A DNA stretch of 64,000 nucleotides from assembly GCA_044222185.1 (NCBI GenBank), contig JBGANV010000002.1, forward strand, positions 704,001-768,000, given 5' to 3'. This document shows, one piece after another, positions 1,280-58,052 of this stretch. Within the stretch, counting starts at the first letter, position 1; every line of letters starts with the position of its first letter. A program made the position numbers and the translations under genes. The stretch is from Planctomycetota bacterium. GTDB lineage: Bacteria; Planctomycetota; GCA-002687715; CAIWVZ01. The notes beneath the pieces were generated by a model that saw only the letters and a program-made list of their open reading frames with translations, was not told the DNA's origin and did no database searches.

Positions 1280-3559
1280 ATGGAATCACGCGCATGGCGC
1301 CGAGTGCTCACCCTGCTTCCGTTCGTTCTCGCTTCCGTCCTCGCGCAGGACGTGAAGACCGGTTCGTCCGCCCCGATCCCCGCGGGCGTCGGCCCGGAGA
1401 CGATCGCCGTGGCTGGCGCGTCCTCATCGCAGGTGGCGGCGAAGACGAAGCCTCCCTCCGCCGTCACGCCGCAGATGCCCGTGCTCGATCGCGTGCTGTT
1501 CGATCAGGTCGACATGACCCTCTGGGCAGCATCCCGGAACTTCAAGGTCGGGTTCGGTCCGGACGGCGCGACGTTCGTCCCGGCCCTGGGACTCGTGGCT
1601 CCAACCAACATGCCCGTGACGTTCCGGCTGTCGGGGATCACCGCCGGCGGTCGCACGATGCCCGTCGGGGAGACGGTCGCGCCTGCGCGCATGGGCGACC
1701 GCGTCACCTTCGATCGCGGCGTGGCGCGGGAGGTCTACGACCTTCGGCTGGAAGGGGTCGAACAGTCGTTCGTCCTCTCGAGGCCGCTCGGCGTCGGTGA
1801 CCACGCCGTCCACGTCGGATTCGACACCGCGCTCGCGGCGACCGTCGCCACGGATGGCATCGCTTTCGAGTCCACCTACGGAGGCGTCCACTACGGCCGC
1901 GCGACGGCCATCGATGCCGCGGGTCGGTCGCTCGCGCTGGAAGCGTCGATCGTCGATCACGAGATCGTGATCGTCGTTCCCGCCGCGTTCCTCGAGAAGG
2001 CAACCTGGCCGGTGACCATCGACCCTCTCGTGTCGACGATGAACATCGACGCGAGCGGCACGCCGTACGTGAATCCGGACGTCGCCTACGACGCAACTTC
2101 CCAGCGCTACGCCGTCGTCGCAGAACAGGTCTACGCGCAGACCGATCGCGACATGTACGCCTGGATCTGCAACTCGGCCGGGAACGTGATCGCCGGCTCG
2201 TTCACGGTGATCGACGCCTCGACGACGAACTGGACCCACCCGAGCATCGCCTTCAAGCGCATCGGAGCCCAGTTCCTCGTCGTCGCGGAGCGCGGCATCG
2301 CTCCGGCGAGGCAGATCTGGGGGCGCGAGTTCACGTCGAGCGTTCCCTCCGTCATCGGCAGCCAGTTCGCCATCAGCGGCAACGAAACCGGTGACAAGTG
2401 CAACCCGGTCGTCGGCGGCGATCCGAGCGCGGCACCTCCCACCTACTACTGCGTCGCGTGGCAGCGCAACTACACGTTGACCGACTTCGACATCCACTCC
2501 CGCATCGTCACCGACACGGCAGGCATGCACTCGGCCGTGCTCACCGTCTCGAACGGAACCGAGGCGGACGAGCGCCCGGCGATCTCGAAGTCGAACGGCA
2601 TGGGTGGTGTGTACGACCAGGTCTGGACGATCGCGTGGCAGCGTTCGCTGACGTGGCACCACGACATCATCGGCTGCCAGGTGAATTGGAATGGCACGAC
2701 CGTCAGCAATCAGTTTGCGATCTCGACCTCGGCGGCCGACACGACGATTCCGTCGGTGTCCGCCATCACCGATCCGTCGCTTGGCCCGACCAGCTACCTG
2801 GTGGCGTACGAGGTCTTCGGGCAGCACAACACGGTCGGCTTCTCGGTGATGCAGGGGCAGACCTACGTCGGTGGCGCCATCGACCTCGCGCAGGTGGAGG
2901 GCGTCGGATCCATCGATCGCCGCCTCCCCACGGCGACCTGTACGGGCGCCACGTTCACGATCGCCTACGCGGAGTTGTGGAATCCGAACTCGGCCGACTA
3001 CGACCTCTACGCGACGACGCTCAACGTCGTCGGCGGAACCACGTTCTCGACCAGTGAAGCGCATGCGCTGCTCCTCGGATCGACGGCGATCGAGACGCGT
3101 CCGCGGATCACCTCGGTTCACGACGCCGGCGAAGTGGGGATTCGGACGAAGGTCGTGTGCGAGGCCGGCCCTGCGCCGAGTGCGGTCGTGTCGGCGATGT
3201 ACGACGCCCGCGCGGCCGTCGGCGGCGTGACGAGCCTCGCGACCGGATGCCAGAACCTGGGGCTGTCCTTCGTGGGGCAGCCGATCCTGGGCCAGCCCGT
3301 CTCGGTGACGCTCGTCAACCCGGGCGCCCATCCGCTGATCGTCGTCGGCGCGCCCATCTGGCCCATGGCTTTGTGCGGTGGGTGCAGTCTCGGCGTCGAC
3401 ATCTTCAACAACCCGCTCGTGTTCCAGGTGCCGTCCGTCAGCGTCGTCGTCCCGGGCGACGGGGCGCTGGTCGGCGCCACCGTCGCGATCCAGGGCGCCG
3501 ACGGGATCGGCGCCTGCGGATACCGCGTCACCGACACGGTCTGGGTGACCATCATGTGA
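1280..3559 (+). CDS. Secreted repeat (probable beta-propeller) protein with shared C-terminal module, paralog 1
   Basis: Start reassigned to MESRAWRR (CGGAGA upstream); signal peptide LLPFVLASVLAQ; N-terminal domain ending WPVTIDP; ~55-60 aa repeats (NPDVAY, HPSIAF, NPVVGG, RPAISK, IPSVSA); ends VPGDGALVGATVAIQGAD...RVTDTVWVTIM. Confidence 0.8.
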   Translation: MESRAWRRVLTLLPFVLASVLAQDVKTGSSAPIPAGVGPETIAVAGASSSQVAAKTKPPSAVTPQMPVLDRVLFDQVDMTLWAASRNFKVGFGPDGATFVPALGLVAPTNMPVTFRLSGITAGGRTMPVGETVAPARMGDRVTFDRGVAREVYDLRLEGVEQSFVLSRPLGVGDHAVHVGFDTALAATVATDGIAFESTYGGVHYGRATAIDAAGRSLALEASIVDHEIVIVVPAAFLEKATWPVTIDPLVSTMNIDASGTPYVNPDVAYDATSQRYAVVAEQVYAQTDRDMYAWICNSAGNVIAGSFTVIDASTTNWTHPSIAFKRIGAQFLVVAERGIAPARQIWGREFTSSVPSVIGSQFAISGNETGDKCNPVVGGDPSAAPPTYYCVAWQRNYTLTDFDIHSRIVTDTAGMHSAVLTVSNGTEADERPAISKSNGMGGVYDQVWTIAWQRSLTWHHDIIGCQVNWNGTTVSNQFAISTSAADTTIPSVSAITDPSLGPTSYLVAYEVFGQHNTVGFSVMQGQTYVGGAIDLAQVEGVGSIDRRLPTATCTGATFTIAYAELWNPNSADYDLYATTLNVVGGTTFSTSEAHALLLGSTAIETRPRITSVHDAGEVGIRTKVVCEAGPAPSAVVSAMYDARAAVGGVTSLATGCQNLGLSFVGQPILGQPVSVTLVNPGAHPLIVVGAPIWPMALCGGCSLGVDIFNNPLVFQVPSVSVVVPGDGALVGATVAIQGADGIGACGYRVTDTVWVTIM

Positions 3560-3687
3560 CGCGACGGATGCAGCGGGGTCTCCGCCGGCGCCTCCACGTC
3601 GGCGCGCAGCCTCCAGCGTCGAACGGCCGGGCCCGCGCCCGGCCGCCGGCATTTCGGGAGTGACCGGCTTCCAGGGTCGATCCCGAT

Positions 3688-3727
3688 TTCATGAAAACGC
3701 GATCCGGCGTGAAGAGCCTTCGTCAAC
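3688..3727 (+). promoter_or_regulatory. Conserved upstream element, copy 2
   Basis: TTCATGAAAACGCGATCCGGCGTGAAGAGCCTTCGTCAAC aligns without gaps to 1157..1196. Confidence 0.6.
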
Positions 3728-3806
3728 CCCCGTCACACGCACCGCCAGGAGGCGATGCTCGACCGGACGGGGCAGCGCTTTCTTGCATTCGCCACGGAGG
3801 TCCGCC

Positions 3807-6077
3807 ATGGAGTTCGCACGCTTCCTTCGCGCAGCCGCGCTCATCCCGTTCGTTCTCGCAGTCGTGCCCGCGCAAGACGTCAAGAGTGCTGAGGGGGAGC
3901 CTGCCACCGCAGGGATCGGCCCGGGCGACGCGCCGGCCGATCGGATCCCATCACACCCCGGCGCACGTCCCACGTCGGATTCGATCCTCCGAGCGATCCG
4001 CCTCGACCGTGTTCTCTACGACGTCGGCGAAGGCAAGCTCTGGGCCGTCGGGAACGACTACAAGATGGCGTTCGATGCGGAGGGAGCGTCGTTCATCCCG
4101 AAGCTCGGGCAGCTCGCGCCCACGAACACGCCCGTCACGTTCCGGCTCGCCCGCGCAACGATCGGCGGAGTGCCCATCGCGCTCGATGATGCCGTTCCGG
4201 CGACGCGCGACCGGGATCGGATCCGTTACTCTCGCGGGGACATCACCGAAGCGTACGACCTGCGTCTCGACGGCGCGGAGCAATCGTTCGTGCTCGAGCG
4301 TCCGCTCGGGGGAGGGGACTGCGTCCTTCACGTCCAGGCAACGACCTCGCTCGCAGGCCGGGCCGAATCCGGCGGGATCTCGTTCGACGGACCCTACGGC
4401 AGCGTTCGCTACGGAGCCGCGACGGCGATCGACGCCCGTGGCGGCCTGCGCAGCCTCGCAATGGAACTCGCCGATGGCGAAATCCGCATCCTGGTTCCGG
4501 GCGACTTCCTGGAGCACGCGCAATGGCCCGTCGTCGTCGACCCGCTCGTCACGACCGGGACGTCCGTGGGGGGATCCGACTTGTTCAACCCGGACGTCGC
4601 GTTCGAACCGGCGGCCGGCATGTTCGGCGTGGTCGCCGAAACGGCGTTCTCGGCCACCGACCACGACGTGCTCGCCTGGCTTCTCTATTCCACGGGCGCG
4701 ACCCTGCTCGGTGCGTCGACCGTGATCGAGGCGGGTGTCTCGAACTGGTCACACCCCAAGGTGGGCGCCAAGAACCTCGGCGCGCAGCTCCTCATCGTGG
4801 CCGAAGTGGGGCTCGCTCCGTCGCGCCAGATCTGGGGCCGGACCATGTTCACTTCCATTCCGACGAACCCCGGGACGCCATTCCAGATCAGCGCGAACGA
4901 GGGCGGCGACAAGGTGAACCCCGTGGTGGGCGGCGACCCGAGCTCGGCGCCTCCGACGTATTACTGCGTCGCCTGGCAACGCATCTTCTCGGCGACCGAC
5001 GACGACATCCACGTCCGAATCATCACGGAGGCGGGAACTCCGCACACCGCCGTGATCGCCGTGTCGAACGGATCCGAGCGTGACCAGGTCCCCGCGATCT
5101 CGAAGTCCGACGGAAACGGCCCCGCGAGCGGCCAGGCCTGGAATCTCGTGTGGCAGCGCGAGATGAGCGGCCACCACGACATCGTCATGAAGCAGGTGAG
5201 CTGGAACGGGTCCACCGTCAGCCCGCTCATCTCCGTCGCGACCACGGGAAGCGACACCGTGAATCCCACCGTCACCGGCTTCACCGACGTGGCGCTCGGG
5301 GCCCCGCGGTTCCTCGTCGCGTTCGAGGTGACGGGCGCCACGCGACGGATCGGGCTGGCGCTGATGCAAGGCCAGTCGTACGTCATCGGGACGAGCGACA
5401 TCAGCGGTGTCGAAGGGGTTCCCGCACTCGACCGCCGACATCCGGCGGTGACCTGCACCGGCGGTCGCTTCGTCCTCACCTATGCGGAGCAGACGTATGC
5501 CGGGTCGACGAACTACGACGTGTTCGCGACGACGATCGACTCGCTCGGAGCGAGCGCCTACTCGATTCCCGAAGGACACGTGCCCGTGATCTTCGGCGCA
5601 CTTCAGTCCGACGACCTGCCGAACGTCGCGTCGCGGTTCGACGGCGGAATCCGCTCCGTCGAGACCCTGATCGTCGGGCAAAGAGGCACGGCGACGCACG
5701 ACCTCGGCTCGGCGCATTATGACGGCATGGGAACGATCGGCGGATTCACGACCGTGGCGACGGGCTGCGGGGGACTCGGCATCACGGCGACAGGCACTCC
5801 CGCACTCGGTCAGCCCGTCTCCTTCCTGCTCTCGGCCGCCCAGACGAATCCGATCATCGTCCTCGGGTTGCCGCTCGCTCCGACCACGCTCTGCAGCAGC
5901 TGCAAGCTCGGCGTCGATCTCGTGAACAACCCGATCGTGATCCCCGGAGTGGCGCTGGCCGGATTCATCCCGCCGGACGGCGGCCTCGTCGGAGTGACGC
6001 TCGCCGTTCAGGGCGCCGACGCCACCGGCTCGTGTGGCTACCGCGTCACCCCGACGGTACGCGTCGCGATCCGCTGA
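3807..6077 (+). CDS. Secreted repeat protein with shared C-terminal module, paralog 2 (tandem duplicate)
   Basis: Start MEFARFLR after GGAGG; collinear with 1280..3559 (YDLRLDGAEQSFVL, NPVVGGDPSSAPPTYYCVAWQR, QGADATGSCGYRVT). Confidence 0.8.
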   Translation: MEFARFLRAAALIPFVLAVVPAQDVKSAEGEPATAGIGPGDAPADRIPSHPGARPTSDSILRAIRLDRVLYDVGEGKLWAVGNDYKMAFDAEGASFIPKLGQLAPTNTPVTFRLARATIGGVPIALDDAVPATRDRDRIRYSRGDITEAYDLRLDGAEQSFVLERPLGGGDCVLHVQATTSLAGRAESGGISFDGPYGSVRYGAATAIDARGGLRSLAMELADGEIRILVPGDFLEHAQWPVVVDPLVTTGTSVGGSDLFNPDVAFEPAAGMFGVVAETAFSATDHDVLAWLLYSTGATLLGASTVIEAGVSNWSHPKVGAKNLGAQLLIVAEVGLAPSRQIWGRTMFTSIPTNPGTPFQISANEGGDKVNPVVGGDPSSAPPTYYCVAWQRIFSATDDDIHVRIITEAGTPHTAVIAVSNGSERDQVPAISKSDGNGPASGQAWNLVWQREMSGHHDIVMKQVSWNGSTVSPLISVATTGSDTVNPTVTGFTDVALGAPRFLVAFEVTGATRRIGLALMQGQSYVIGTSDISGVEGVPALDRRHPAVTCTGGRFVLTYAEQTYAGSTNYDVFATTIDSLGASAYSIPEGHVPVIFGALQSDDLPNVASRFDGGIRSVETLIVGQRGTATHDLGSAHYDGMGTIGGFTTVATGCGGLGITATGTPALGQPVSFLLSAAQTNPIIVLGLPLAPTTLCSSCKLGVDLVNNPIVIPGVALAGFIPPDGGLVGVTLAVQGADATGSCGYRVTPTVRVAIR

Positions 6078-6187: not shown

Positions 6188-9100
6188 TCAGTCCTCGCTC
6201 GTCCGCGGGTCCGGCTCCCGATGGTGGAGCGGAGCCGCGGGGGCGATCGTCGGAGTGGCGCCGCCCGCGATCGGCGGCGGCGCGCTCCGCTCGTCGCGCG
6301 TCACGAGCGGTGTCTCGGGATAGAGGTGGACGTCCTGGCGGGGGAACGGGATCTCGATCCCTTGCGCACGGAACGCGAGGTCCAAGGCGAAGAGCAGCTC
6401 GCTCTTCACCTTCGCGCCGTTCGTCGACAGTCGAAGCCAGTAGCGCAGTTCGAAGTCGAGCGAGCTGGCGCCGAACCCGACGAAGAACACGTCATACGCC
6501 GGGTGTCTCAGCACGAGCGTGTGCTTCTCGACGATCCCCATGACGATCGTGCGGAACTTGGCCACGTCCGTCCCGTAGGCGACGCCGATGGGCAGGGTGG
6601 CACGGATGGTCGGAGTGCCGGCGGACCAGTTGCTCACCTTCGTCGAGATGAGGTCGCGGTTCGGGACGATGAGGCCCGTGTTCTCGGGCGTCATCACGGT
6701 CGTCGAGCGCATGTTGATGCGATCGACCCGACCCACGACTCCGTCGACGGAGATGGTGTCGCCGACCTTCAACGGCCGTTCGACGAGCAGGATGATCCCG
6801 CTGACGAAGTTGTTGATGATCTCCTGCAGACCGAAGCCGACGCCGACGCCCAACGCGCCGATGAACCAACCGATCTGCGTCGCGTCGACGCGCAGCTGGC
6901 CACCGAGGACCAGGATGCCGAAGAGTGCGATCAACGTGTACGTGGCGAGCGTCACGATCGTGTACTGCAACCCGCGATCGAGGCGAGTCCTCGGCAGGAG
7001 CACGAAGCGGAGGAGATCCCGGTTGAGCCGGATGATGAACACGGCGAGCGCCGTGGTGATGACCGCGTTGACGACGTTGCCGAGGGTCAGGTTCGGCGAG
7101 ATCCAATTCATCTTCTGATCGAAGGCGGCGTCCCACCCGGCGCCCGTGAGTCCCCAGTGATCCAACGTGAACCACACGGCCGGGCCATACACGGCGAGCT
7201 TGATCGCCAGTCGCCGGATGCGATCGCCGAGGTGCGCGCGTCCCCGTGCGAGGAACTCGGCTTCGTCGAGTCCCAGGTCGAGCTCCGGCCGCTCGACCGG
7301 CGGCGTTCCGCGGAAGAACAGGCGAGCGAGCCAGCCCGCCGCGATCCACGCCGCGAGCAGCCAGCCCGCCGTCGTCAGGAAGCGATCGAGGAAATAGCGC
7401 GCCGCGACGCGATACGAGAGGCTGTGGAGCACCATCAGGTAGATGACGGCGCCGACGATGGACGGGTAGGCGACGAGAACCAGCGCCTTGAACGACAACG
7501 CCGCGTCGCTCTCGCCCTTGAACAGCGACATCAACACCGAGGGCCTGGCCATGACGGACAGGATGATCAGCGAGCTGAGCACCGTGTTGATGAGCCACAA
7601 GAGCTCGACGATGCCGGGATTGCGGGCTCGGTATGGCGTCACGGTCAGGAGCAACGCGACGGGCACGATCACGACCCAGACGCGCAGCAAGAGGACGATG
7701 GTCCCGTGGCAGAGGCGCGCGATGCGGTCCCGCGTCGGGAGCAGGCGCGGGGCCTTCTCGTCGGCGCCGAACAAGAGGTCGAGAAGCGTGCGGGCAAGCC
7801 GGAATGCGAAGGGTGTGCCGCAGAGTATGGCCACGACCTTGATCGTCGCCTCGTTCGCTCCAGCGAGCGCTGGCAACGCCACGCCGGCGAACGCGATGAC
7901 GAGCGTGATCTCCGTGCTTCGCACGAGATAGGTCAGGATGTGGCGGATGCCGCCGAACACGCCCTTCTCGGCCCACTCCTTGTCGTCGAACGAGTAGGTC
8001 TTGGAGGAGAAGTGATGGGCCGCGATCGCGAGGCCGATCACGGCGGCGAGCGCGAGAGCGAGCTTCACGATCTCGGAGACGCGTCCCTCGGACACTCGGC
8101 TCGTGAAGTAGTCGCGCACTCCACCGATGGATCCGATGGCGGCGCGCTGAACGACTTCCGAGATGGACTTGGAGTCCTCGAACGCCTGCCGGATCGACTC
8201 GATCGAGATGTCGCTCTCGTCGCGGGTCCACCGAAGTGCGCGCTGGTATCGGATCAGGTTCTTCTCGGCGTCCGCACGCGTCGCTCCGAGCGTCTTGCCC
8301 GCGACCGTGAGCAGGTTCGTCAGTCCTTGGAGCTTCTCCAGCCGCGCTGCCGCCGCGGCGCGAAGGTCGGTCGCGAGCTGGTCCCAGGCTCTCGGGTTGG
8401 CCGCGTCCCGGGTCTCCGGCGTGTCGGGTTTCGCGTCCGCGGGGGGTGCGCCCCGCTTGCGATCGTTCTCGACCTGCTCGACGAGGAGGTCGGGTCGTAG
8501 GGCCTGTGCCGCGCGCAGCTGCTCCCGCGTCTCCAGGAGGAGTTTGCGCAGCTCCTCCTGGAGCTGGTGCATTCGGTCACGGGTCGCTTCCCTCACCTCG
8601 ATGATGACGGTCAACCCGCGGACCGTTCCGGACGTCACATCCTCGATGGCGTGCGCGCCGCTGTCGACCTCGTCGAACGACCGCTTGTCCGAGTCCGCCT
8701 CGTCCTTCGCGACGGCGATCTCTCCACCGACGCCCACGCGCGCATCCCACACCTTGCGCGCCTTGTCGAGCCGCGTGGCCTCCACGCGCAGGTTTGCGAG
8801 CAGGCGCTTGTCCAGCCAGTACGGCTGTGCCCACGGCGGAAGGGTCGCGAGCAGGACGTCGAGCGTGGATTGCTCCGTCAAGACGCGCTGGAGCCGCGAT
8901 TCATAGGCCTGGTCCAGAAGAACGCCCGTCTTGCGGCGCCGAGCGTCCCAGGTGCGGAGCTTCTGGTCCTCGTAGTCGACCCTGAGGTCCGCGGCCCGCA
9001 GGCGCGCCTCGCGGTTCTTGCCGATGGCGTGGCTCCAACGGTCGACCTCCGCCTGGAACCGGGCGACGCGGATCTTCTGGAGAAACACCTTCTCCTGGAC

Positions 9101-9778
9101 GAGCCGCAAGATCTCTCCGTCAGCTCCACCGGTGAGAGCGGCCTTCGCGTCGCTCTCGGCGCCTTCCAGGTCTTTCCTCGCCTCGGCGAGACTCTGCTCG
9201 GCTTCCGCCGGCTTCGCCTGGGCGGAATCCAGGTCGGACTTCAGGTCGTCGCGGTCTTTGCTGCACTTCTCGCGATATTTCCGGACGGCTTCGACTGCCG
9301 CCTCGGCCGTCGCACGTTCGCGTTGAAGGCGCTCCTCGGCGTCGTCCGCCGTCGGATCGGGCAGACCGATTGGGTCCAGTTCTTGCTGTTTGCGGATCGC
9401 GATCTGCTTTTCGAACTCGATGGCATCACTGAGCGCCTTGGTCGATGCGGCTGCATTGAGCAGCAGCGTTGCCCTGACGTCCACGAGTGCCTGAAGGTTC
9501 TTGACCTGGCTCTTCAGCGTCTCGATCAGGTCGGCCCTGGTTCCTGAGAACTCCTCCGTCTGCTTCTGATCCGAGACCTCGATGGTCCATCGGAGGCTCT
9601 GAAGCAGGCGATCCACATCGGCTTGCGCCGCTGGGATGACCCGGCGGTCGGCGGGCTCGAGCGGTCGCGTGTCCTGCGCATGTAAAGACGATGCAACGAC
9701 AAGAAGACCCATCGCGAACCAGATCGTTCTGCGGGGAGTCAAAGGCTGCGTGGTGATTACGGCAAGCGTTTTGAGCAT
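6188..9778 (-). CDS. Large MscS-family (MscK-like) mechanosensitive channel
   Basis: Signal peptide, long coiled-coil region, many TM helices, then MscS core GALGVGVGFGLQEIINNFVSGIILLVERPLKVGD...IGVAYGTD...GIEIPFPRQDVH. Start moved to MLKTL. Confidence 0.9.
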   Translation of the reverse strand: MLKTLAVITTQPLTPRRTIWFAMGLLVVASSLHAQDTRPLEPADRRVIPAAQADVDRLLQSLRWTIEVSDQKQTEEFSGTRADLIETLKSQVKNLQALVDVRATLLLNAAASTKALSDAIEFEKQIAIRKQQELDPIGLPDPTADDAEERLQRERATAEAAVEAVRKYREKCSKDRDDLKSDLDSAQAKPAEAEQSLAEARKDLEGAESDAKAALTGGADGEILRLVQEKVFLQKIRVARFQAEVDRWSHAIGKNREARLRAADLRVDYEDQKLRTWDARRRKTGVLLDQAYESRLQRVLTEQSTLDVLLATLPPWAQPYWLDKRLLANLRVEATRLDKARKVWDARVGVGGEIAVAKDEADSDKRSFDEVDSGAHAIEDVTSGTVRGLTVIIEVREATRDRMHQLQEELRKLLLETREQLRAAQALRPDLLVEQVENDRKRGAPPADAKPDTPETRDAANPRAWDQLATDLRAAAAARLEKLQGLTNLLTVAGKTLGATRADAEKNLIRYQRALRWTRDESDISIESIRQAFEDSKSISEVVQRAAIGSIGGVRDYFTSRVSEGRVSEIVKLALALAAVIGLAIAAHHFSSKTYSFDDKEWAEKGVFGGIRHILTYLVRSTEITLVIAFAGVALPALAGANEATIKVVAILCGTPFAFRLARTLLDLLFGADEKAPRLLPTRDRIARLCHGTIVLLLRVWVVIVPVALLLTVTPYRARNPGIVELLWLINTVLSSLIILSVMARPSVLMSLFKGESDAALSFKALVLVAYPSIVGAVIYLMVLHSLSYRVAARYFLDRFLTTAGWLLAAWIAAGWLARLFFRGTPPVERPELDLGLDEAEFLARGRAHLGDRIRRLAIKLAVYGPAVWFTLDHWGLTGAGWDAAFDQKMNWISPNLTLGNVVNAVITTALAVFIIRLNRDLLRFVLLPRTRLDRGLQYTIVTLATYTLIALFGILVLGGQLRVDATQIGWFIGALGVGVGFGLQEIINNFVSGIILLVERPLKVGDTISVDGVVGRVDRINMRSTTVMTPENTGLIVPNRDLISTKVSNWSAGTPTIRATLPIGVAYGTDVAKFRTIVMGIVEKHTLVLRHPAYDVFFVGFGASSLDFELRYWLRLSTNGAKVKSELLFALDLAFRAQGIEIPFPRQDVHLYPETPLVTRDERSAPPPIAGGATPTIAPAAPLHHREPDPRTSED

Positions 9779-9959
9779 GGCGCGACTTGGGGGTTCGGCA
9801 CGGCTCCGACGTGCGGAAAAGCTCGCGATCGTAGCAGCGCCTTCTCGTTGGCCGGGAACCACCGACTGCCCCGCAGTTGGTGCGGGTCGTCCGGGGTTCC
9901 TGCCGTTGGTCATCTCGACAGAGGGAAATCCGTCCGGCGCTCGTATGGGAGGACTTGCG

Positions 9960-32379: not shown

Positions 32380-33561
32380 ATGCGAATCTCAACTCTCGCC
32401 GTGGCGGTGTGGTCTCTCGCGGCACTCGTCCACGCCCAGTCGATCACCGTCTCGCCATCGGTCGTCAACCCGGGGACGACGCTCACCGCCGTCGTCTCGG
32501 GGACGCCGACGGTGCCCCTCCATCTCAACGGCACGCGCGCATTCCTGCTGACGGCGACGGGGGATCTCGTCACCCCGCGCTTCAAGCAGGGTCATACGAC
32601 CACCTTCACGGCAACCGGACCCCCGGGCGAGACGGCGCAGCTTCAGGTCCCGGCTTCCGGGCCCGGGTCTACCGGATCTCACGTCCTCTTCGTGCCGAAT
32701 TCGACGACGATCTCGGGGCCGTCGGGACCGCCCGGCTTCGCTGGCCTCGCCGCGCGGATCGACGTGGGGGCGCCAACTCCCGGATTCCCCGCGCTGCACC
32801 CGTTTCCCATCAATCTGGTGTCCGGCTTCGGCTCCTATGCGACGTTCGGCCTGTCGATCCTCGGACCCGCAGAGTGGTGCTTCGCGAACACGTCGCCCGT
32901 CCCGATCACGCTCGGGCCAACCGACGTCGCGCGCGTGTTCGTCCCAGGCGGTACGGCGCCGCTCGTCACGACCTCGCTCACGGGGATCACGATTCCCCCT
33001 TCGCAGGTGATCTCCTTCGTGATCATCGGAGCGGCGTTGCCCGCGGCGCCCTACACGGTCCAGATCGACTGGCTCGATCCGTTCGTGGGAGCGGCGTCGG
33101 TGCGCACGGGAATCCGCGGATCGAACCTGGGGTTCGGTGCCGATCTTCACCTCCCCGCGGGGCGCACCGTGGCGCCGGGCGGATCGCTCGACGTGTACGC
33201 CGACATCCCGGCCCTCTCCGGCGCGCCCAGCTTCTTCCTTCTCGTGGGATACCAACCGGGATCGACCACCGTTCCGGGCGGGGCGGTGGTCCCACTGGTG
33301 CCTGACGAACTCGTGCTCGCATCGCTCGCAGGTTCGCTGGCGCCCTACCTCCCAGGAGCGTCGGGTACTGCGGTGCCGTTCGGTCCTGCGTGTGCGGGCT
33401 ACTGCGGACCGGGAACCATCGCGACGAGTCTGGCGAGCGGGATCTCCGTGACGCACCCTGGCCCCGTGGCTTCCGGCCTCGTGCTCAGACTCGCGCTCGT
33501 CGCGTTCGTCGCGCCGGGCCAGTGGATCCCGACGCAGGGTCAGGAGATCACGCTCTTGTGA
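32380..33561 (+). CDS. Secreted beta-rich protein with (divergent) shared C-terminal module
   Basis: GGAG upstream; signal peptide MRISTLAVAVWSLAALVHAQ; ends VTHPGPVASGLVLRLALVAF...PTQGQEITLL. Confidence 0.75.
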   Translation: MRISTLAVAVWSLAALVHAQSITVSPSVVNPGTTLTAVVSGTPTVPLHLNGTRAFLLTATGDLVTPRFKQGHTTTFTATGPPGETAQLQVPASGPGSTGSHVLFVPNSTTISGPSGPPGFAGLAARIDVGAPTPGFPALHPFPINLVSGFGSYATFGLSILGPAEWCFANTSPVPITLGPTDVARVFVPGGTAPLVTTSLTGITIPPSQVISFVIIGAALPAAPYTVQIDWLDPFVGAASVRTGIRGSNLGFGADLHLPAGRTVAPGGSLDVYADIPALSGAPSFFLLVGYQPGSTTVPGGAVVPLVPDELVLASLAGSLAPYLPGASGTAVPFGPACAGYCGPGTIATSLASGISVTHPGPVASGLVLRLALVAFVAPGQWIPTQGQEITLL

Positions 33562-33675: not shown

Positions 33676-35550
33676 TCAGGGGACGAAGACCGTCGTCTCG
33701 GGGTTCGACATGCGGAGTCCGCCGGCGATCGTGGGGTCGGACACGACCGCTTGAAGCGTGATGGTCGCTCCCGTGGGGACCGTCGCCGGGACGAGAATCG
33801 TCTCCAGCCCTTCGCCGTTCGAGTTCGCGATCCCGGAAGGACCACCGGCGAAGCCGTTCACGATGAAGATCGGCGACGCGCTGAGATTCAGGTTGATCAG
33901 GCCGGGGCCGACGGCAATCCCGGGCGACGACGCGATCCCGACCGCGATCGCATAAGGCGAGTTGGCGTGCGCCGTCACGCCGGGGAACACGGGGATGCCC
34001 ACGCGCACCGGGCGCGGCGCCGCGGTCCCGAATCCGGCGCGGCCAGCCCAGTTGTTGATCCGCAACGTGGCGCCGCAGTCCGGTGGTTGTGCGCCAGGCG
34101 TGTTGGGCCCGTTCTGCACGTACAAGCGAGCCTGATCGGCGATCTCGTCCGTCGCGATGATGTCCACGTCGCCATCCCGGTCCAGGTCGACCAGGGTCGT
34201 GCACGAGCCCGCGGAGGTCGACGGCAGCGTCGTCGGCGGACCGAACGCCCCGGCACCGGTGTTGAATCGCACAGTGTAGTTCGACGATCCGTAGTTCGAC
34301 ACCACGCAATCGAGGTCGCCATCGCCGTCGAGATCGGCGAGGTCCACCGCGGCCGGGAGGTTTCCCACGCCGAAGGTCGTGGCTGCGCCCAGACTCCCGG
34401 CGCCATTGCCGAGCATCACGCCGAGCGTGTTCGTTCCGCGGTTGGCGGTGACGACGTCCACGTTCCCGTCACCATTCAGATCGCCCGTGGCGTTCTGGAA
34501 CGGCCCGCCGCCGCACGCGCGTGTCACGCTGATCGTGAACCCGCCAGCTCCGTTCCCGAGCAGGACCGTGACGCTGCCCGAGCCGAGGTTGCCGACGAAG
34601 AGGTCCGGTTTGCCATCGTTGTTGGCGTCGGCGACGGAGACGTTGTCCGGGCTCACGCCGCCACTGGAGATGCTCAGAAGCTGCGTGAAGGCGCCCGTGC
34701 CGTCGTTGGCGAAGGGGATGATGGCGGAGTTGTTCGCGGCGACGACGTCCTGGTCGCCGTCGCCATCGAAGTCGAGCACCGCGACACCGTGCGTGTACCC
34801 GCCAGTCGGGTACGTGACCGGTGGCAGGAATCCGCCGGAGCCGTTGCCCAGGTAGATGGAGATCGCTCCGCCGCCCTGATTCCCCGTCACGAGATCCATC
34901 CAGCCGTCGCCGTTGAAGTCACCGCCCTCGTTCGGACTGGGCTCTTGTCCGGGCGCCGGGACGATGGTCATGGGGCCGAACGTTCCACAACCGTCGTTGT
35001 GGAGCACGCGGATGTCGTGCGCGACTTCGTTCGGGGCCGTGATGTCCGGGCTGCCGTCGCGATCCACGTCGCCGCCGAATACGCCGTAGGTCGCGATCAG
35101 ACCTTCTCCTGGCTGTCGCAGCGCGATGGTCTGCTGAAGCGAGAATGCCGCCGTGCCTGGAGCCGGCCGGCCCCAGAAGTGCGAGAAGAATCCGCCCGTC
35201 AGCGCGGCTCCCGTGGCCGAGTGCACTGACGATGCGACGCGCACCGTGACGTTTTCGCCCGGGAAGTACGGTCGCGCCGGTTGGAAGACGACGTGATTGC
35301 TGCCGGGGCCGACGGTGAGCGTGCCGGAGACGTCGCCGCTCCAGCGGCCCGCGACCTTGATCGATGCGGACGTCACGGTCGCCGGATTGACGGCCGCGCT
35401 GAAAGTCAGTTCGACGGGATCGGCCGTCGACGAGAGGTTCGAGTTTCGGCTCGGCGTCACGGCGGTGACGGCAAATGATTGGGCGATGGCCGCTTGGATC
35501 GCCAGGAGGCTGATCGCAACCGAAGCCAGGTAGGGTCGTGGCGTGGACAT
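33676..35550 (-). CDS. Secreted FG-GAP/VCBS repeat protein with N-terminal Ig-like domain and shared C-terminal module
   Basis: Start moved to MSTPRP (GGAGAG upstream); VELTFSAAVNPATV; seven repeats (GDVDRDGSPDI, GDFNGDGWMDL, LDFDGDGDQDV, ADANNDGKPDL, GDLNGDGNVDV, ADLDGDGDLDC, VDLDRDGDVDI); ends VPATVPTGATITLQAVVSDP...GLRMSNPETTVFVP. Confidence 0.9.
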   Translation of the reverse strand: MSTPRPYLASVAISLLAIQAAIAQSFAVTAVTPSRNSNLSSTADPVELTFSAAVNPATVTSASIKVAGRWSGDVSGTLTVGPGSNHVVFQPARPYFPGENVTVRVASSVHSATGAALTGGFFSHFWGRPAPGTAAFSLQQTIALRQPGEGLIATYGVFGGDVDRDGSPDITAPNEVAHDIRVLHNDGCGTFGPMTIVPAPGQEPSPNEGGDFNGDGWMDLVTGNQGGGAISIYLGNGSGGFLPPVTYPTGGYTHGVAVLDFDGDGDQDVVAANNSAIIPFANDGTGAFTQLLSISSGGVSPDNVSVADANNDGKPDLFVGNLGSGSVTVLLGNGAGGFTISVTRACGGGPFQNATGDLNGDGNVDVVTANRGTNTLGVMLGNGAGSLGAATTFGVGNLPAAVDLADLDGDGDLDCVVSNYGSSNYTVRFNTGAGAFGPPTTLPSTSAGSCTTLVDLDRDGDVDIIATDEIADQARLYVQNGPNTPGAQPPDCGATLRINNWAGRAGFGTAAPRPVRVGIPVFPGVTAHANSPYAIAVGIASSPGIAVGPGLINLNLSASPIFIVNGFAGGPSGIANSNGEGLETILVPATVPTGATITLQAVVSDPTIAGGLRMSNPETTVFVP

Positions 35551-39462: not shown

Positions 39463-39469
39463 CCGCGCC

Positions 39470-42813: not shown

Positions 42814-44586
42814 ATGTCGGCAGGGATGAAACTCGTCGTGGCCGTGGTGTGGGCCATCGTCGGTGTGCGAGAGCTCGCGGCTCAGGCCCAGGGCGGAATC
42901 GGCGGCGTCATCCTGCCGCCGCCGGAAGTGGGGAACTGCATCTCCGACGCCGACCAGCTGCGCGTCCAGGCTCAGCTGATGAACGTGTCGGCCGGCCCCG
43001 ACACCGCACCCGGGACGTTCATCACCTACCCGCAGGCAGGGTCGCTCGGCGAGGACCTCTTCATCGGCGCCTACCTCGACCACGACCCGAGCCCGGGCGT
43101 GCTCGACTGGCACTGCACGGATTACACCTACGACACGCACCTGGGCGCCGACTCGGAGATCCGCAGCTTCGGCGAGCAGCTGATCGGCGTGCCCATCTTC
43201 GCGGCGGCCGACGGCACGGTCGTCGGCACGGACGACGGCCATCCCGACATGAACACCGTGTGGGCCGGCCAGCCCTCCAACTACGTCATCGTCGACCACG
43301 GCGGCGGACGCCTGGGCTACTACTGGCACATGCGCAACGGCAGCGTGGCCGTGTCCATGGGGCAGGTCGTGAAGGCCGGCCAGCAACTGGGGGAGACGGG
43401 CTCCAGCGGCAACAGCGGCGGCCCGCACCTCCACTTCGAGGTCCACGACGCGGGCGTTCCCGTGGACCCGTGGGCCGGTGCGTGCCGCCCCGGCGGCTCC
43501 TTGTGGAAGCAGCAGACGCCGTGGACCGGAGGGCCTGTCGGCTTGCGGGACTTCGGCGTCTGCCGCACGAATCCCGGTTCCTCCGGCTACCCCTTCGCGT
43601 CGCCTCACGATCCTCAGTGGGTCACGTCCGACCCATCCATCTTCTTCTGGGGGCTCATCGCGAACCTCCCGGTCAGCTCCACGTACCGCGTGACGTTCAT
43701 CCGCCCGGACAACTCCATCTCGTATGCCACGCCCACGTTCCCCATCGGCAACACGACGGTGTGGCCGCGCGCCTGGGTGTGGTGGAACTGGAACATCTTC
43801 GACATGCACACGATCACGGGCACGTGGACCATCCGCCTCGAACTGAACGGCGTGGTCGTCGTGAATGCACCCGTCTCGGTCGTCAACGCGGTCACGCCCG
43901 GGTTCAACCGCGCGCCGTCGCCCATCACCGCGACGATCCTGCCGGCGGCTCCCACCGCGGCCGATCCGCTGGTCTGCCGCGTCCAGCAGGACCTCCTCCT
44001 CGACGACCTCGACTGGGACATCGTTCGCTTCACCTACACGTGGCGCGTGAACGGGACGATCGTGCGCACGCGGACGTCCGCGGGACGCACCGACATGATC
44101 CCGCACCACCTGGCACCTCCGGGCGCCACGGTCACCTGCACGGTCACGCCCTCCGACGGCGTGGCGAACGGGGCGACCGTCGTCGCGACGACGACGATCC
44201 GCACGCTCGGCGTCTTCCCGCAGCAGGTGTCCGCGGCGACCGGAGGCACGATCTGCTTCACCGTGGACATGGGACCCGCACAGGCCGGAGCGACCTACCT
44301 CTTGGGCGGCTCCTACACCGGGACGTCGCCGGGCATCGTCGCGTCACCGACGGTCACGATCCCGCTCGTGTACGACGGCCTCACGGACTTCCTCGTGTTC
44401 CATCCGAACACCCCGCCGTACGCAGGTACGCTCGGCGTGTTGAGCCCGCAGGGCGCGGCCGCCCCGACGCTGAGCCTGCCGCCGCTGCCGCCCGCATACG
44501 TCGGTCTCACGATCCACCACGCGGCGTTCATCGCCGGGGCGCCATGGGCGGCCACGAACGCCGCGTCGTTCGTGACGGCGCCCTGA
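42814..44586 (+). CDS. Secreted M23-family metallopeptidase with shared C-terminal module
   Basis: GGAGG upstream; signal peptide; HLGAD (HxxxD), AAADGTVV, YWHM, GSSGNSGGPHLHFEV (HxH); ends LPPLPPAYVGLTIHHAAF...ATNAASFVTAP. Confidence 0.9.
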   Translation: MSAGMKLVVAVVWAIVGVRELAAQAQGGIGGVILPPPEVGNCISDADQLRVQAQLMNVSAGPDTAPGTFITYPQAGSLGEDLFIGAYLDHDPSPGVLDWHCTDYTYDTHLGADSEIRSFGEQLIGVPIFAAADGTVVGTDDGHPDMNTVWAGQPSNYVIVDHGGGRLGYYWHMRNGSVAVSMGQVVKAGQQLGETGSSGNSGGPHLHFEVHDAGVPVDPWAGACRPGGSLWKQQTPWTGGPVGLRDFGVCRTNPGSSGYPFASPHDPQWVTSDPSIFFWGLIANLPVSSTYRVTFIRPDNSISYATPTFPIGNTTVWPRAWVWWNWNIFDMHTITGTWTIRLELNGVVVVNAPVSVVNAVTPGFNRAPSPITATILPAAPTAADPLVCRVQQDLLLDDLDWDIVRFTYTWRVNGTIVRTRTSAGRTDMIPHHLAPPGATVTCTVTPSDGVANGATVVATTTIRTLGVFPQQVSAATGGTICFTVDMGPAQAGATYLLGGSYTGTSPGIVASPTVTIPLVYDGLTDFLVFHPNTPPYAGTLGVLSPQGAAAPTLSLPPLPPAYVGLTIHHAAFIAGAPWAATNAASFVTAP

Positions 44587-44596
44587 TCGCCTCCCG

Positions 44597-51664: not shown

Positions 51665-51679
51665 CCAAGGTCGATTCCG

Positions 51680-52308: not shown

Positions 52309-55194
52309 TCAGAGTTCCACGAGTCCCGGCCAGGTGAGCCGGAGACCGAGCGATACGTTCGGATCGAGCACGACGGCCTGGACCGCGGCATGAATGCCGA
52401 GCGGTGGCGTCGGCAGCATCATCGGCCCGAAGCGCGCCGTACCGCCTGGCGCCGTCGCGTAGGGATCCGGCATCGTCGAGCAGCTGCCGAACGGTCCGCC
52501 GAAGATGCTGATCCCGTCGCAAAGCACGAATGCAAAGGGTGAGAACCCGCGAAGCAGATACGCGCTAGCAGTGGAGTAGGGGTCCGGGATGAGGACCGGG
52601 CCGTTGTTCTGCACGTCGAGCATCAAGGTGAAGGGTTGGCCGATCGGACAGCCGTCGAGCACGATCGTGCTGAGCGAACCTGGGACCGTGACGGCCGGGT
52701 CCGTGCGGATCGTGCCGGCGTTGCTCAGCTGCCCCGGCGCCGACTCGATCTTCACGGCAACGGCATTCGAGGGCGCCAGCGGTCCGTTCATGACGGTGAT
52801 GGTCAACGCACCGATCTGTGTCGCATCTGCGAACGGCGGCGCCACCCGCAACGAAAGAAATGTGGCCTGTTGAGAGACGAGGGTCAATCCGGCCACCGCC
52901 ATCGATGTGGAGACGAACGTGCCGTTGACGACCACGCCGAATCCGGGTGTGTTCAGCGCGAAGCCGGTACCGAACAGGAGTACGTCGTACGAACCGGATC
53001 CGACGACGAGCGGCACGTGCGACGTCGGCTGGTGCGATTGGATCTGCGGAGGACGAACCTCGAAGGTCAGCGGCACGGGAGATTCGAGCGCACAATCGAA
53101 CGGCGGCGATTGCCGTGCCGTGAGGATGAGCTGACCCGGACGCGCGAGCAGTTCCGGCGGAAGAACCAGTTGAAGCCCCGTTGGGCCGAGGAAGTTCGGC
53201 GAGATCTCCGTGACCTGATTGCCGTCCCAGACGTCGATGACCGACATGTAGTCGAAGTTCGTCCCGGTGATCGTCAGCGCGGCCGAGGACTGCCCGGCCG
53301 CGGCGCCAGACGGCACGACCGCCGAGAGCGTGGGAGTCGCCGAGACCGCGAGCACCGCGGGCTCCCAGCTGATTCCGCCGCCCGGACCCGGATTCACCAC
53401 GTTCGCATAGCGCTCGCCGATCGTCGCAAGCGTCCCCGCGGGCGCGGTGAATCGAATGAGCCCTTGGTGCACGAACGTCACGGACGAACCGGCAATCACC
53501 TGCCCCGCGAACGTCACATGACATCCTGCGACGAAGCCGCTGCCATGAATGTCGAACTGGGCCGGGCTCGCGTTCATGAGTACGCACGGTGGATCCACGT
53601 AGGACGGATAAGGCTCCGGATTGAGAATCGTGAACGTCTGACACGCGTTGCCGCCACCGGAAGGAGCGTTCACGACACACAGCGAGTGGTTGCCTGCAGT
53701 CGTCACGTCGGTTTCGGTCAGTTGGACCTGCAGCTGGCCAGACCCCATGTAGAGAAACGCATGCGCGACGCCGTCCCAGGTGACGGCCGAGTCGGGCCAG
53801 AATCCAGCGCCCGTGATCGTGATGACCGGAGGCGGATAGCCGACGGTAGTCGAGGTCGGGCTGATCGACGCGATGCTCGGAACGGTGTTGTTGACCGTGA
53901 AGGTCAGCGGTGACGTCGTTCCGCCGCCGGGGACGGGCGTCGTCGCGCGGATCGTGAGGGTTCCTGGAAGTGCCAGGTCGAACGGGCCGAGCGGAGTCGT
54001 CAGCTCGGTTGCCGAGACGAACGTCGTCGGCCGGATGTTGCCGTTGACCGTGACGTACGACGCGGGCACGAAGCCGCCGCCGAAGACGTGCAGCGTCGGA
54101 GGTGAGCTGCCGCGGACCCCGCTCGCTGGGAGAAGCCCGCTCGTGGTCGGGATCGGATAGATCACGTTGATGAAGCCGGGCGCCGATTGTGGAGTCCCCG
54201 GGTTCACCAGGGCGATCGCCAGGGTGCCGACGGTCGTGAAGTTGACCGCGGGCAGCGTCACGTTGTATTGGTTCGGGTTCACGTAGCTTCCCACGAGGCT
54301 CGTCGTTGCACCGTTTCGCGTGACGTTCACGGTCGTCCCGGGGGTGAAGTTCGCGCCGATCAACGTGAGCGGGAGCGCGCCTGCGCCGTACGACACCGTG
54401 GTTGGTACCCCTGACGTGAGGGTTGGTTGCAGAGAACCGGTTCTGACGATGCTCAGATCGTAGGTGTCGTTGGGTTGCGTCGTGACCGGTCGATCCTGGT
54501 ACACGATGAGCCCGTACCAGCCGAGAGTCGTGAGCTGCACGTTGACTGGGTTCGTCACGGTGCTCCCGAGGGCGACGTAGTCGTAACGCGTCTGCCACGC
54601 ACCGCTCGGCTGCGGCTGGTGCAGGCGCCACCGCATCGGTGACGAGGATGCGATGCTGATCCTGTAGGCGCCGACTTCGGTCACGTTGAACTTGAACAAC
54701 CGGCCGATCGACATCGACGCGCCGGTCGACGTCGATCCGCCGTTCCAGTTCAACCCCGCATAGGACGTGCCGACGACGAGCGTATTGTTGCCGTCACTCG
54801 AATAGGTGTGCCGGACGTACGCCGGGGATGGCCCGGCGAATCGGATGAAGCTCCCCGACATGTGGGTCGGGAGTCCGTGGATGCCGTCGCTGATGATGTA
54901 GTCGTACCGGTTGTCGAGGTCGTCCGAGATCACGTTGGCGATGGAGATGTCCCAGTCGCTCGCTGGAGACGTCAGGTTCTTGTTGACGATTCCAACGGCG
55001 TTCCATTGGTCATCCACATAACCGGAGAGCTGGAAGCAACGCTCCGTCGTCGTCGCCGTCGTGACCTCCGTGGCGGTCGACGCTGGAAGCGTGATGGTAG
55101 AACCGGAGCACTGGGCGCGAACGCAGCACGCAGCAGTGATGAGAGTCACGGCAAGGCGAACTGAGAGTGCGCGACGGGGTATCCCGAATGTCAT
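52309..55194 (-). CDS. Secreted IPT/TIG-repeat protein with shared C-terminal module
   Basis: GGAGG upstream; signal peptide; repeats PTLTS..P / LTLIGANF, PSIASISP / ITITGAGF, PTLSAVVP / LTITGTNF; ends LPTPPLGIHAAVQAVVLDP...GLRLTWPGLVEL. Confidence 0.85.
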   Translation of the reverse strand: MTFGIPRRALSVRLAVTLITAACCVRAQCSGSTITLPASTATEVTTATTTERCFQLSGYVDDQWNAVGIVNKNLTSPASDWDISIANVISDDLDNRYDYIISDGIHGLPTHMSGSFIRFAGPSPAYVRHTYSSDGNNTLVVGTSYAGLNWNGGSTSTGASMSIGRLFKFNVTEVGAYRISIASSSPMRWRLHQPQPSGAWQTRYDYVALGSTVTNPVNVQLTTLGWYGLIVYQDRPVTTQPNDTYDLSIVRTGSLQPTLTSGVPTTVSYGAGALPLTLIGANFTPGTTVNVTRNGATTSLVGSYVNPNQYNVTLPAVNFTTVGTLAIALVNPGTPQSAPGFINVIYPIPTTSGLLPASGVRGSSPPTLHVFGGGFVPASYVTVNGNIRPTTFVSATELTTPLGPFDLALPGTLTIRATTPVPGGGTTSPLTFTVNNTVPSIASISPTSTTVGYPPPVITITGAGFWPDSAVTWDGVAHAFLYMGSGQLQVQLTETDVTTAGNHSLCVVNAPSGGGNACQTFTILNPEPYPSYVDPPCVLMNASPAQFDIHGSGFVAGCHVTFAGQVIAGSSVTFVHQGLIRFTAPAGTLATIGERYANVVNPGPGGGISWEPAVLAVSATPTLSAVVPSGAAAGQSSAALTITGTNFDYMSVIDVWDGNQVTEISPNFLGPTGLQLVLPPELLARPGQLILTARQSPPFDCALESPVPLTFEVRPPQIQSHQPTSHVPLVVGSGSYDVLLFGTGFALNTPGFGVVVNGTFVSTSMAVAGLTLVSQQATFLSLRVAPPFADATQIGALTITVMNGPLAPSNAVAVKIESAPGQLSNAGTIRTDPAVTVPGSLSTIVLDGCPIGQPFTLMLDVQNNGPVLIPDPYSTASAYLLRGFSPFAFVLCDGISIFGGPFGSCSTMPDPYATAPGGTARFGPMMLPTPPLGIHAAVQAVVLDPNVSLGLRLTWPGLVEL

Positions 55195-56567: not shown

Positions 56568-56588
56568 GCGGCCCGCGGGCCGCGATCA

Positions 56589-57359
56589 TCACAGGCCGAC
56601 GGCGTGGAATCCGTTGTCCACGAAGAGAGTCTCGCCGGTGACGCCGCGCGAGAGGTCGGAGAGGAAGAAGAGCGCCGCATCGGCGACCTCGGCAACCTCG
56701 ATGTTGTCGCGCATCGGCGTCTTGTCGGCGACGATGTCGAGGACCTGGGAGAAACCGGAGATGGCGGCCGCCGCCAGGGTTTTGATGGGTCCTGCGGAGA
56801 TCGCGTTCACGCGGTGCCCCTTGGGACCGACGTCGACTGAGAGGTAGCGGACGCACGCTTCGAGCGCCGCCTTCGCCACACCCATCACGTTGTAGTGCGG
56901 GATGACCCGCTCAGACCCGATGTAGGTCAACGTGAGGAAGCTCCCGCGGCGACCTTCCATCAGCGGCACGGCGCGTTTTGCGAGCGAGACGAGCGAGTAG
57001 GCCGACACGTTCAGCGCCACCTGGAAACCATCGGCGGTGGTGGCCATGAACTCTCCGTCGAGTTCCTCCTTCTTTGCGAACGCCAGCGCATGAACGACGA
57101 AGTCGAGGTGATGCTTGTGCTTCTGGATCCAGGTGAACAGGTCATCGACCTGGGATTCCTGGGTGACGTCGCAGGGCAGGAGGTGAGGGTGATGCGGCAG
57201 CTCCGCCGCCAACGCCGCCACGTTCTCCTTCAGACGCTCGTTCTGATAGGTCAGCACGAGGTGCGCGCCTTCTTCGGCCGCGCGCTTGGCGATGCCCCAG
57301 GCGATGCTTCGCTTGTTGGCGACGCCGAGGATCACACCGGTCTTTCCCTTCAGCAGCAT
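56589..57359 (-). CDS. fabI: Enoyl-ACP reductase
   Basis: GVANKRSIAWGIA, SAYSL, YNVMGVAKAALE, RVNAISAGPIKTLA, VDNG. Confidence 0.96.
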   Translation of the reverse strand: MLLKGKTGVILGVANKRSIAWGIAKRAAEEGAHLVLTYQNERLKENVAALAAELPHHPHLLPCDVTQESQVDDLFTWIQKHKHHLDFVVHALAFAKKEELDGEFMATTADGFQVALNVSAYSLVSLAKRAVPLMEGRRGSFLTLTYIGSERVIPHYNVMGVAKAALEACVRYLSVDVGPKGHRVNAISAGPIKTLAAAAISGFSQVLDIVADKTPMRDNIEVAEVADAALFFLSDLSRGVTGETLFVDNGFHAVGL

Positions 57360-57578
57360 GAATCGCTCCTCCCGCAGTGCCGCTCCGGGCGCGGGGCCGG
57401 GAAGGTTACCGGCGCGACCTCCCTGGATCGAGGGGGCGTCGGCGAGCGGCCTCGATGATCGTTTCCCGAAACCCCGGTTCGGGTTCGGGACCGATGAGCG
57501 GAATTCTCAACGCCCCTTGGACCCGGGTGTACAGTGCCGCCGGTTTGCGCTGAGCCAGAAGACTCAAGGAGAAGAACC

Positions 57579-58052
57579 ATGCGAAGGAACCCCCTTCTTG
57601 CTGCGTCGTTCCTGCTCGTCGTCTTTGCGTCCGGTGCGTTCGGACAAAGCGTGGAACTGGGAGTTCAGAGCTGCCGACTGATCGACCTCACTCCGACGGA
57701 CAGCTTCACGCTGGGTGCCACGAGCTCATTCATGGTCGATGCGGGAGTCCCCGGCCTGGAGGGCTACTTCGTCACCGTGTGGCAGGAATATGCGCCGTGG
57801 GACAACCTCGTACATTCGATTCCAGGGATCGGCGGAGGGCTGTTCATCAATGAGCACCGCCCCTATCACATCTTCCTGCAAGGCGGCCCCATGACGGGCG
57901 GTGCGAACCCAGGCCAGTCGGTGACGATGCAGTTCACCTGGCCGACGACACCAAGCCTTCTGGGCGCGCAATTCGTGGTGCAGGGCTACGTCGTCAACTG
58001 GAATTCCACCCAACAGAACTTCACGACCGCGCTCGTCGGCACGATTCGCTGA
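57579..58052 (+). CDS. Small secreted protein consisting essentially of the shared C-terminal module
   Basis: AAGGAG upstream; signal peptide ...VFASGAFGQ; ends FTWPTTPSLLGAQFVVQGYVVN...NFTTALVGTIR. Confidence 0.8.
   Translation: MRRNPLLAASFLLVVFASGAFGQSVELGVQSCRLIDLTPTDSFTLGATSSFMVDAGVPGLEGYFVTVWQEYAPWDNLVHSIPGIGGGLFINEHRPYHIFLQGGPMTGGANPGQSVTMQFTWPTTPSLLGAQFVVQGYVVNWNSTQQNFTTALVGTIR

Follow-up and report, generated by a model that had tools for sequence, protein, structure and literature searches.

Seven genes in a 64,000-nucleotide stretch of a Planctomycetota bacterium genome (hereafter the window; GenBank assembly GCA_044222185.1, C6:704001-768000) encode proteins that begin with a signal peptide, and profile comparisons identify the C-terminal tails of six of them, here termed A, B, D, E, F and G, as copies of one uncatalogued domain of 110–130 residues. 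An earlier note made from the letters of the window alone (the original prediction) had proposed that all seven proteins end in a similar beta-rich module. Hidden Markov model (HMM) and profile-profile comparisons bear this out for the six, and retain the seventh, C, as probable only. We give about even credence to the reading that the domain, which has expanded to ~290 genes, serves localisation, anchoring or docking its proteins through a single shared partner in the cell envelope. The window belongs to a 7.08-Mb assembly (67% GC, 16 contigs, 94% completeness); genome searches covered its 61,510 six-frame open reading frames (ORFs), and an ORF was counted as a domain carrier at E < 1e-3.

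Six, probably seven, window proteins with related C-terminal tails

The seven genes of the window are as follows:

Gene A, 1280..3559 (+): signal peptide, ~600-aa cargo without family, canonical-type tail at ~3167-3556
Gene B, 3807..6077 (+): paralogue of A, canonical-type tail at ~5733-6074
Gene C, 32380..33561 (+): signal peptide, beta-rich cargo without family, probable diverged E-type tail at ~33142-33558
Gene D, 33676..35550 (-): signal peptide, Big_5 and FG-GAP repeats (Pfam), D-type tail at ~33685-34077
Gene E, 42814..44586 (+): signal peptide, Peptidase_M23 (Pfam), middle region without family, Gln-less E-type tail at ~44185-44583
Gene F, 52309..55194 (-): signal peptide, five choice-of-anchor Z (IPT/TIG-like) repeats, F-type tail at ~52312-52725
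Gene G, 57579..58052 (+): signal peptide and domain alone (~57639-58049), no cargo

All seven ORFs, and the starts of their signal peptides (1280, 3807, 32380, 35550 on the minus strand, 42814, 55194 on the minus strand, and 57579) had been correctly called, and all 14 quoted tail peptides were found at the genes and strands given for them. The N-termini of all seven proteins consist of a basic and then a hydrophobic stretch ending in A/G-Q, and their tails, as originally described, have neither a transmembrane (TM) helix nor a basic end. The cargo assignments held for D (FG-GAP), E (M23), F (IPT/TIG-like) and G (none), but the propeller-like and beta-rich cargos proposed for A, B and C match no family; A, B, C and G as a whole yielded no Pfam or NCBIfam family, and no model fell on any of the seven tails at E <= 0.1. 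The cargo of F is a curated 'choice-of-anchor' domain (NCBIfam NF058597, E 1.1e-72, 240.1 bits against a curated cut-off of 30). Seven domain genes in 64 kb, compared with a genome mean of about one per 25 kb, amount to a mild local excess (Poisson P ~0.017).

Plain MAFFT alignment gives 47% identity between the A and B tails across their last 140 residues and only 16–24% outside this pair, so that profiles were needed to make the case. A canonical HMM (161 states, ~130 of them matched) was derived from 126 C-terminal paralogues, using the final 150 residues of each. Against this genome-built model the A tail scored 35.2 bits on its own, the B tail aligned over residues 729-841 of its 842-aa ORF (E 1.2e-9), and the G tail matched with E 2e-10; G has three further paralogues elsewhere in the genome (E 1e-22 to 3e-26). 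The tails of D, E and F match the HMMs of their own subfamilies (E 5.8e-27, 6.7e-29 and 2.4e-37, respectively). These subfamily profiles align with the canonical profile across ~100 columns in hhalign, with a probability of 97.8% and E 9e-13 for the D type (25 members), 98.6% and 6e-16 for the E type (49 members), and 96.8% and 2.9e-10 for the F type (43 members). D taken alone matched alignment A3 with a probability of 72%, and profile iteration started from the F tail collected 60 matches, D included, after three rounds and converged on 142 domains in 141 ORFs.

The C tail is probably a member of the E subtype, as judged from its alignment with the E-type profile (hhalign probability 58%, E 1e-4, 99 columns, with a 15-residue Cys-containing insert). 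It did not match the canonical, D-type or F-type profiles, and C has no paralogue found in the genome; given the missing paralogue and a weak match to the E-type profile alone, C is counted as probable only.

Family size, subfamilies and position in the genome

The canonical HMM identified 201 ORFs in the genome, and its union with the three subfamily profiles amounts to 287. The consensus reads [FY]G.GC ... P.LG ... GC.LylD ... tD..G.a.l.l.IPnDPaL.G....QA.v.D ... lSNal.l.lG, with the consensus G, P, P, G and Q positions kept in 82–92% of members. In the E type the Gln is missing and a P-L-x-x-D motif is found instead; the second subtype that had been suspected from the absence of this Gln and from a P-L-V-x-D motif is thus recovered as the E-type subfamily, to which 55 ORFs belong at E < 1e-3. 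The module proved larger than the ~40-residue tail originally pointed to, extending over 110–130 residues.

The proposed genome-wide HMM scan returned many matches, mostly terminal and mostly with signal peptides. The domain ends within 10 residues of the C-terminus in 218 of the 287 ORFs and 11–30 residues from it in another 24. Strict C-terminal placement, as originally expected, did not hold: in the remaining 45/287 the domain lies further in, and in some of these it directly follows the signal peptide. Among the canonical terminal copies, 143/169 stop 0–2 residues past the last model position; a penultimate Gly is present in 73/169, and the last residue is enriched in P, F, Y, L and Q. Non-terminal copies are genuine rather than artefacts, and include several proteins in which signal peptide and domain precede a Kelch propeller, as well as arrangements with another propeller in its place or with a signal peptide and a D-type domain followed by a ~240-residue NIDO-like module. 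The conserved loop motif is retained in N-terminal and internal copies alike. Particular arrangements are located as follows:

C15:351518-359000 (-): three adjacent genes, each with signal peptide, N-terminal domain and Kelch-like propeller
C6:335673-336992 (-) and C1:1324421-1325803 (-): two ~440-aa proteins with signal peptide and three tandem domains joined by poly-Pro linkers

A signal-peptide-like start upstream of the domain was found in 166 of the 201 canonical ORFs and in 189 of 400 control ORFs by a crude rule, which is permissive, so that only the contrast with the controls is meaningful. An [AGS]-Q pair after the hydrophobic stretch occurs in 144/201 domain ORFs and 95/400 controls. 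The Gln is probably the first mature residue of these proteins, with the cut falling after A/G; such A/G-Q cleavage resembles the 'Q-rule' of Bacteroidota. Glutaminyl cyclase (PF05096) was not found. The search for DUF1559 (PF07596) gave no match, its control being silent too.

Relation to known families and predicted fold

As the original prediction had anticipated, the tails match no Pfam or NCBIfam model of a sorting domain. Scanned singly, 41 members gave no consistent Pfam or NCBIfam match at E <= 1, no model from either database fell on the tails of 80 full-length metagenomic members, and a profile hmmsearch of PDB sequences with alignment A2 returned no match at E <= 1. Homologue searches with P0021 and with A3 returned three proteins each, one of them titled 'hypothetical protein' and the rest carrying no name. 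A literature search, judged by titles and abstract openings, found no paper describing this domain.

Structures were predicted for the G and B tails. The AlphaFold model of the B tail (65 sequences) has a predicted local distance difference test score (pLDDT) of 91.2 and a predicted template-modelling score (pTM) of 0.80, with ten strands across residues 20-128; the G-tail model (41 sequences) reached a pLDDT of 65.7 and gave generic matches only. The best PDB match in Foldseek had E 0.016 with template-modelling scores no higher than 0.41, and VIA-align found no match at Z >= 8 among 48,161 chains, its top rows (Z 6–7.3) being immunoglobulin (Ig)-like domains of receptors, accessory domains of glycosidases and CBM56. 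The modelled fold is a generic Ig-like beta-sandwich and, being generic, offers no functional lead. Conserved Cys pairs predict a disulfide-containing domain, as would suit an extracytoplasmic location. Prediction of a homodimer of the B-tail domain (two copies, residues 18-130, alignment A3) gave a score of 0.00 against a mark of 0.42, which speaks neither way.

Comparison with known sorting systems

The closest parallel is with the type A tails of the type IX secretion system (T9SS; TIGR04183). Both combine a Sec signal and varied cargo with a small C-terminal Ig-like sandwich present in tens to hundreds of copies per genome, and in both the chain stops after the last strand (20 control T9SS tails end in ...KKMILLK-stop). 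Copy density is also similar, at 287 in 7.1 Mb here and 111 in a 3.3-Mb Melioribacteraceae genome. The present domain differs in its length (110–130 residues, compared with ~75–90 in T9SS), its conserved Cys pairs and its 16% of non-terminal copies. TIGR04183 matched none of the seven proteins (E <= 0.1), none of the 41 members (E <= 1) and nothing in the whole genome, with the same 111 matches in the Melioribacteraceae genome serving as positive control; in hhalign, 20 T9SS tails compared with four domain profiles reached a probability of at most 0.8%, on a par with a reversed control. The 50 VIA-align rows shown include no T9SS tail, which excludes nothing.

The sorting signals processed by exosortase, myxosortase and rhombosortase (PEP-CTERM TIGR02595, MYXO-CTERM TIGR03901 and GlyGly-CTERM) occupy the same place on HAF, choice-of-anchor and FG-GAP cargo, but consist of a ~30-residue motif, TM helix and basic tail that undergo intramembrane cleavage, unlike the folded soluble domain predicted here. 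SLH and dockerin modules are folded modules carried by many exoproteins in high copy, mostly in terminal position, and work at either end. The present domain differs from them in being an all-beta Ig-like sandwich with no cohesin-like partner, and Pfam SLH and dockerin models gave no match on the 41 members (E <= 1) or the seven proteins. TIGR03437, from Solibacter, is likewise an uncharacterised C-terminal domain shared by secreted proteins of one lineage, and labels some homologues of the F cargo; it is absent from the NCBIfam matches of the seven proteins and of the 41 members at E <= 1.

Distribution and cargo

Comparative searches sustained the description of a beta-rich terminal domain that is restricted to a lineage and attached to Sec-exported proteins of varied cargo. 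All 23 species genomes in the collection for the class of the window's genome were positive, with 16–150 matches each. In a sample of 201 genomes drawn evenly across the phylum (match threshold E <= 1e-5), 39 were positive, most of them with at least 20 matches, and families were almost all-or-none. Spot checks of five genomes from Brocadia, Gemmatimonadales, Myxococcaceae, Binatia and Melioribacteraceae found the domain in none. In a metagenomic library clustered at 50% identity, 24,797 representatives matched at E <= 1e-3, and 4,848 of them still did so at E <= 1e-10. The best 150 of the 24,797 all end 0–7 residues from the C-terminus, and the nearest ESM Atlas clusters are mostly from Planctomycetota.

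Among 80 of these metagenomic members, Pfam identified FG-GAP (12), Kelch (8), RCC1 (3), Ig (2), matrixin (M10; 2) and DUF3466 (2) as cargo, together with single cases of trypsin, LamG, MopE, GEVED, LTD and a galactose-binding-like domain; 45 had no Pfam family. NCBIfam models on the same 80 members were ELWxxDGT (8), HAF (4), choice-of-anchor X (2), choice-of-anchor Q (1) and DNRLRE (1). Several of these cargo families carry PEP-CTERM or T9SS tails elsewhere.

Putative alternative anchors on relatives of the cargo

The A/B cargo (553 residues) was sought in the 201 phylum genomes and was present in 18. In domain-positive genomes, tails of A/B type could be recognised by eye at 12 of 30 loci, with 2 of the 30 reaching the HMM threshold in a quick scan. 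Six domain-negative genomes held partial matches to the A/B cargo within larger proteins, and six ORFs were taken from five of these genomes; five of the six ORFs were recovered. Two of these cargo relatives (E 7e-18 and 5e-15) end in a Cys motif, a TM helix and an Arg-rich tail; one such tail passes the MYXO-CTERM model TIGR03901 (20–22.6 bits, cut-off 20) and the other scores 15.5–17.7 bits. The remaining three comprise one ORF without such a tail, one cut by a contig end and one wrong-frame product. The two large proteins sharing part of the A/B cargo and bearing MYXO-CTERM-type tails come from domain-negative members of the same phylum:

L184:1577-1756 (-)
L187:3302-3481 (+)

This suggests that putative MYXO-CTERM-type sorting signals stand in these two proteins where the window's lineage has the domain. 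For the F cargo, 120 homologues listed included no T9SS or PEP-CTERM Pfam families.

Search for associated machinery

Neighbourhoods of domain genes were compared across the genome. Within three genes of a domain gene lie 58 of 135 Ser/Thr kinases and 21 of 60 extracytoplasmic function (ECF) sigma factors, over a background of 27%, and a few small families are likewise over-represented. AcrB-type pumps were considered as a partner, with 6 of 7 located near domain genes (BLAST union), and were set aside as a chance association with no consistent order or orientation. Models for SprA and PorV (TIGR04189, NF033710) found no match in the genome, the SprA control being silent and the PorV control giving one match, below cut-off; PEP-CTERM (TIGR02595) was likewise without a match, again with a silent control. 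As the SprA and PEP-CTERM controls were silent, those absences are weak. A regular-expression scan retrieved 41 C-termini with a TM helix and basic residues and no recurrent motif among them; the genome is without a rival TM-plus-basic C-terminal sorting family.

No translocon is encoded within the window, in agreement with the original prediction, the other genes being of housekeeping and signalling type. Ser/Thr kinase genes adjoin ECF-type sigma factor genes at 27565-30764 (-) and 58451-62211, and the kinase at 27565-30764 (-) is fused to an FGE-sulfatase domain. Other genes in the window are:

6188-9973 (-): 1261-aa protein with a C-terminal MscS-type mechanosensitive channel, its first ~1000 residues without family
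35664-39965 (-): 1433-aa protein combining TIR_2, an NPHP3_N/AAA_16 NTPase and a TANC1-like winged helix, directly upstream of D; its layout presumably resembles that of STAND-type defence or signalling proteins
63317-64000 (-): Schlafen AlbA_2 ORF (E 6e-20), cut at the window end

Interpretation

The localisation reading is favoured by the size of the family, the terminal bias, the diversity of cargo, the conserved, seemingly exposed motif that persists whether or not there is cargo, the almost all-or-none distribution and the sorting signals found in cargo relatives. The role, binding, partner and cellular location that we infer for the domain can be put together as follows. The proteins would be exported by Sec, after which the folded domain would attach to a single shared partner in the cell envelope by way of the conserved P-x-D-P-x-L-x-G ... 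Q loop and strand. Binding would hold cargos as different as propellers, peptidases, Ig/TIG arrays and lectin-like domains at one place, and the domain would stand in for the PEP-CTERM, MYXO-CTERM or T9SS tails of other lineages. It would act by docking as a folded module, more in the manner of SLH or dockerin than of a threaded export signal, and if so the domain could also work directly after the signal peptide. Because some copies stand alone, in tandem or away from the C-terminus, docking is likelier than a T9SS-like threaded signal.

Several observations weigh against a localisation module. Non-terminal copies make up 16% of the total, and stand-alone and triple-tandem forms are present. 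A quick FastTree run on the 287 domains, weak since the domains are short, requires at least 25 changes of position, compared with a mean of 40.6 (range 36–43) for shuffled labels; internal copies therefore cluster on the tree, yet do not form a single old branch, and position changes in this number imply that the terminal position is no fixed requirement. Precise chain termination need not have been selected, and could be the legacy of a 3' cassette that brought a stop codon with it. Beta-propeller repeats account for about half of the cargo that could be identified, which makes a structural role beside propellers conceivable, and the alternative-anchor case comprises two distant, partial cargo matches. 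Neither the genes of the window nor the genome-wide neighbours yielded a partner, receptor or machinery. Exosortase (PF09721) is not complementary to the domain, being present in 9 of the 26 genomes with the domain and in 6 of the 15 without it.

Resemblance among the tails by chance or composition, through strands rich in Gly, Ala, Pro and Thr in a 67% GC genome, is hardly credible. The low pairwise identity outside the A/B pair and the lack of a significant match between C and the canonical profile would fit it, but six of the seven tails are significant by HMM or profile-profile comparison, which already refutes it for A, B, D, E, F and G, and the 24,797 library representatives and the confident model of a common fold tell against it as well. 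A more serious, if rather doubtful, alternative would make the domain a plain Ig-like module, structural or ligand-binding, that lacks a common partner and spread by duplication as a 3' cassette with its own stop codon. Such a module could account for the generic Ig-like fold matches (Z ~6, including CBM56 and glycosidase accessory domains), for the failure to find machinery, for the tolerance of N-terminal, internal and tandem positions with their 25 or more changes on the tree, and for the at least 35 of 80 cargos that are of propeller type (FG-GAP, Kelch, RCC1, ELWxxDGT, HAF). It explains less readily why the same loop and Gln are found across unrelated cargo and where there is no cargo, or why cargo relatives elsewhere bear sorting signals at the same position. 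Against it also stand the 84% terminal bias, far above the usual level for Ig-like spacer domains, the estimated frequency of about 1 in 20 genes (assuming ~5,500 genes for 7.1 Mb), and a phyletic pattern close to all-or-none, in which genomes that have the domain hold tens of copies.

The domain could instead be an outer-membrane export signal for a T9SS-like translocon, maybe cleaved afterwards, which we consider unlikely. This would agree with the 84% of copies lying no more than 30 residues from the C-terminus, with the precise chain end after the last strand, with the terminal position of all of the best 150 metagenomic matches, and with the combination of signal peptides, diverse cargo, Ig-like fold, T9SS-like copy density and almost all-or-none distribution by family. 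It is opposed by the 45/287 internal or N-terminal copies, which keep the motif, by the cargo-less and triple-tandem forms, and by profiles that bear no similarity to that of T9SS type A tails. The genome gave no match to SprA or PorV (the SprA control being silent), and neither the window nor the enriched neighbours supplied a candidate translocon. A bolder form of the localisation reading takes the domain as the address tag of a new Planctomycetota sorting or surface-display system, in which the products of about 1 in 20 genes would be directed to a dedicated envelope receptor or translocon; this we regard as possible, though on the doubtful side.

Significance

No Pfam or NCBIfam model covers the ~25,000 clusters at 50% identity that make up the family, and its members go under the label hypothetical; with a curated model, tens of thousands of proteins could be labelled at once. 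The non-terminal copies turn the search for a mechanism towards a folded module that docks. As a localisation tag, if it is one, the domain would define what entire Planctomycetota lineages, most of them uncultured, secrete or display at the surface, and if the address-tag proposal is true, the system would be a functional counterpart of T9SS and exosortase assembled from unrelated parts. A curated model would also help in tracing a new receptor in the envelope, or a new route of secretion, in a phylum where the biology of the envelope is little understood.

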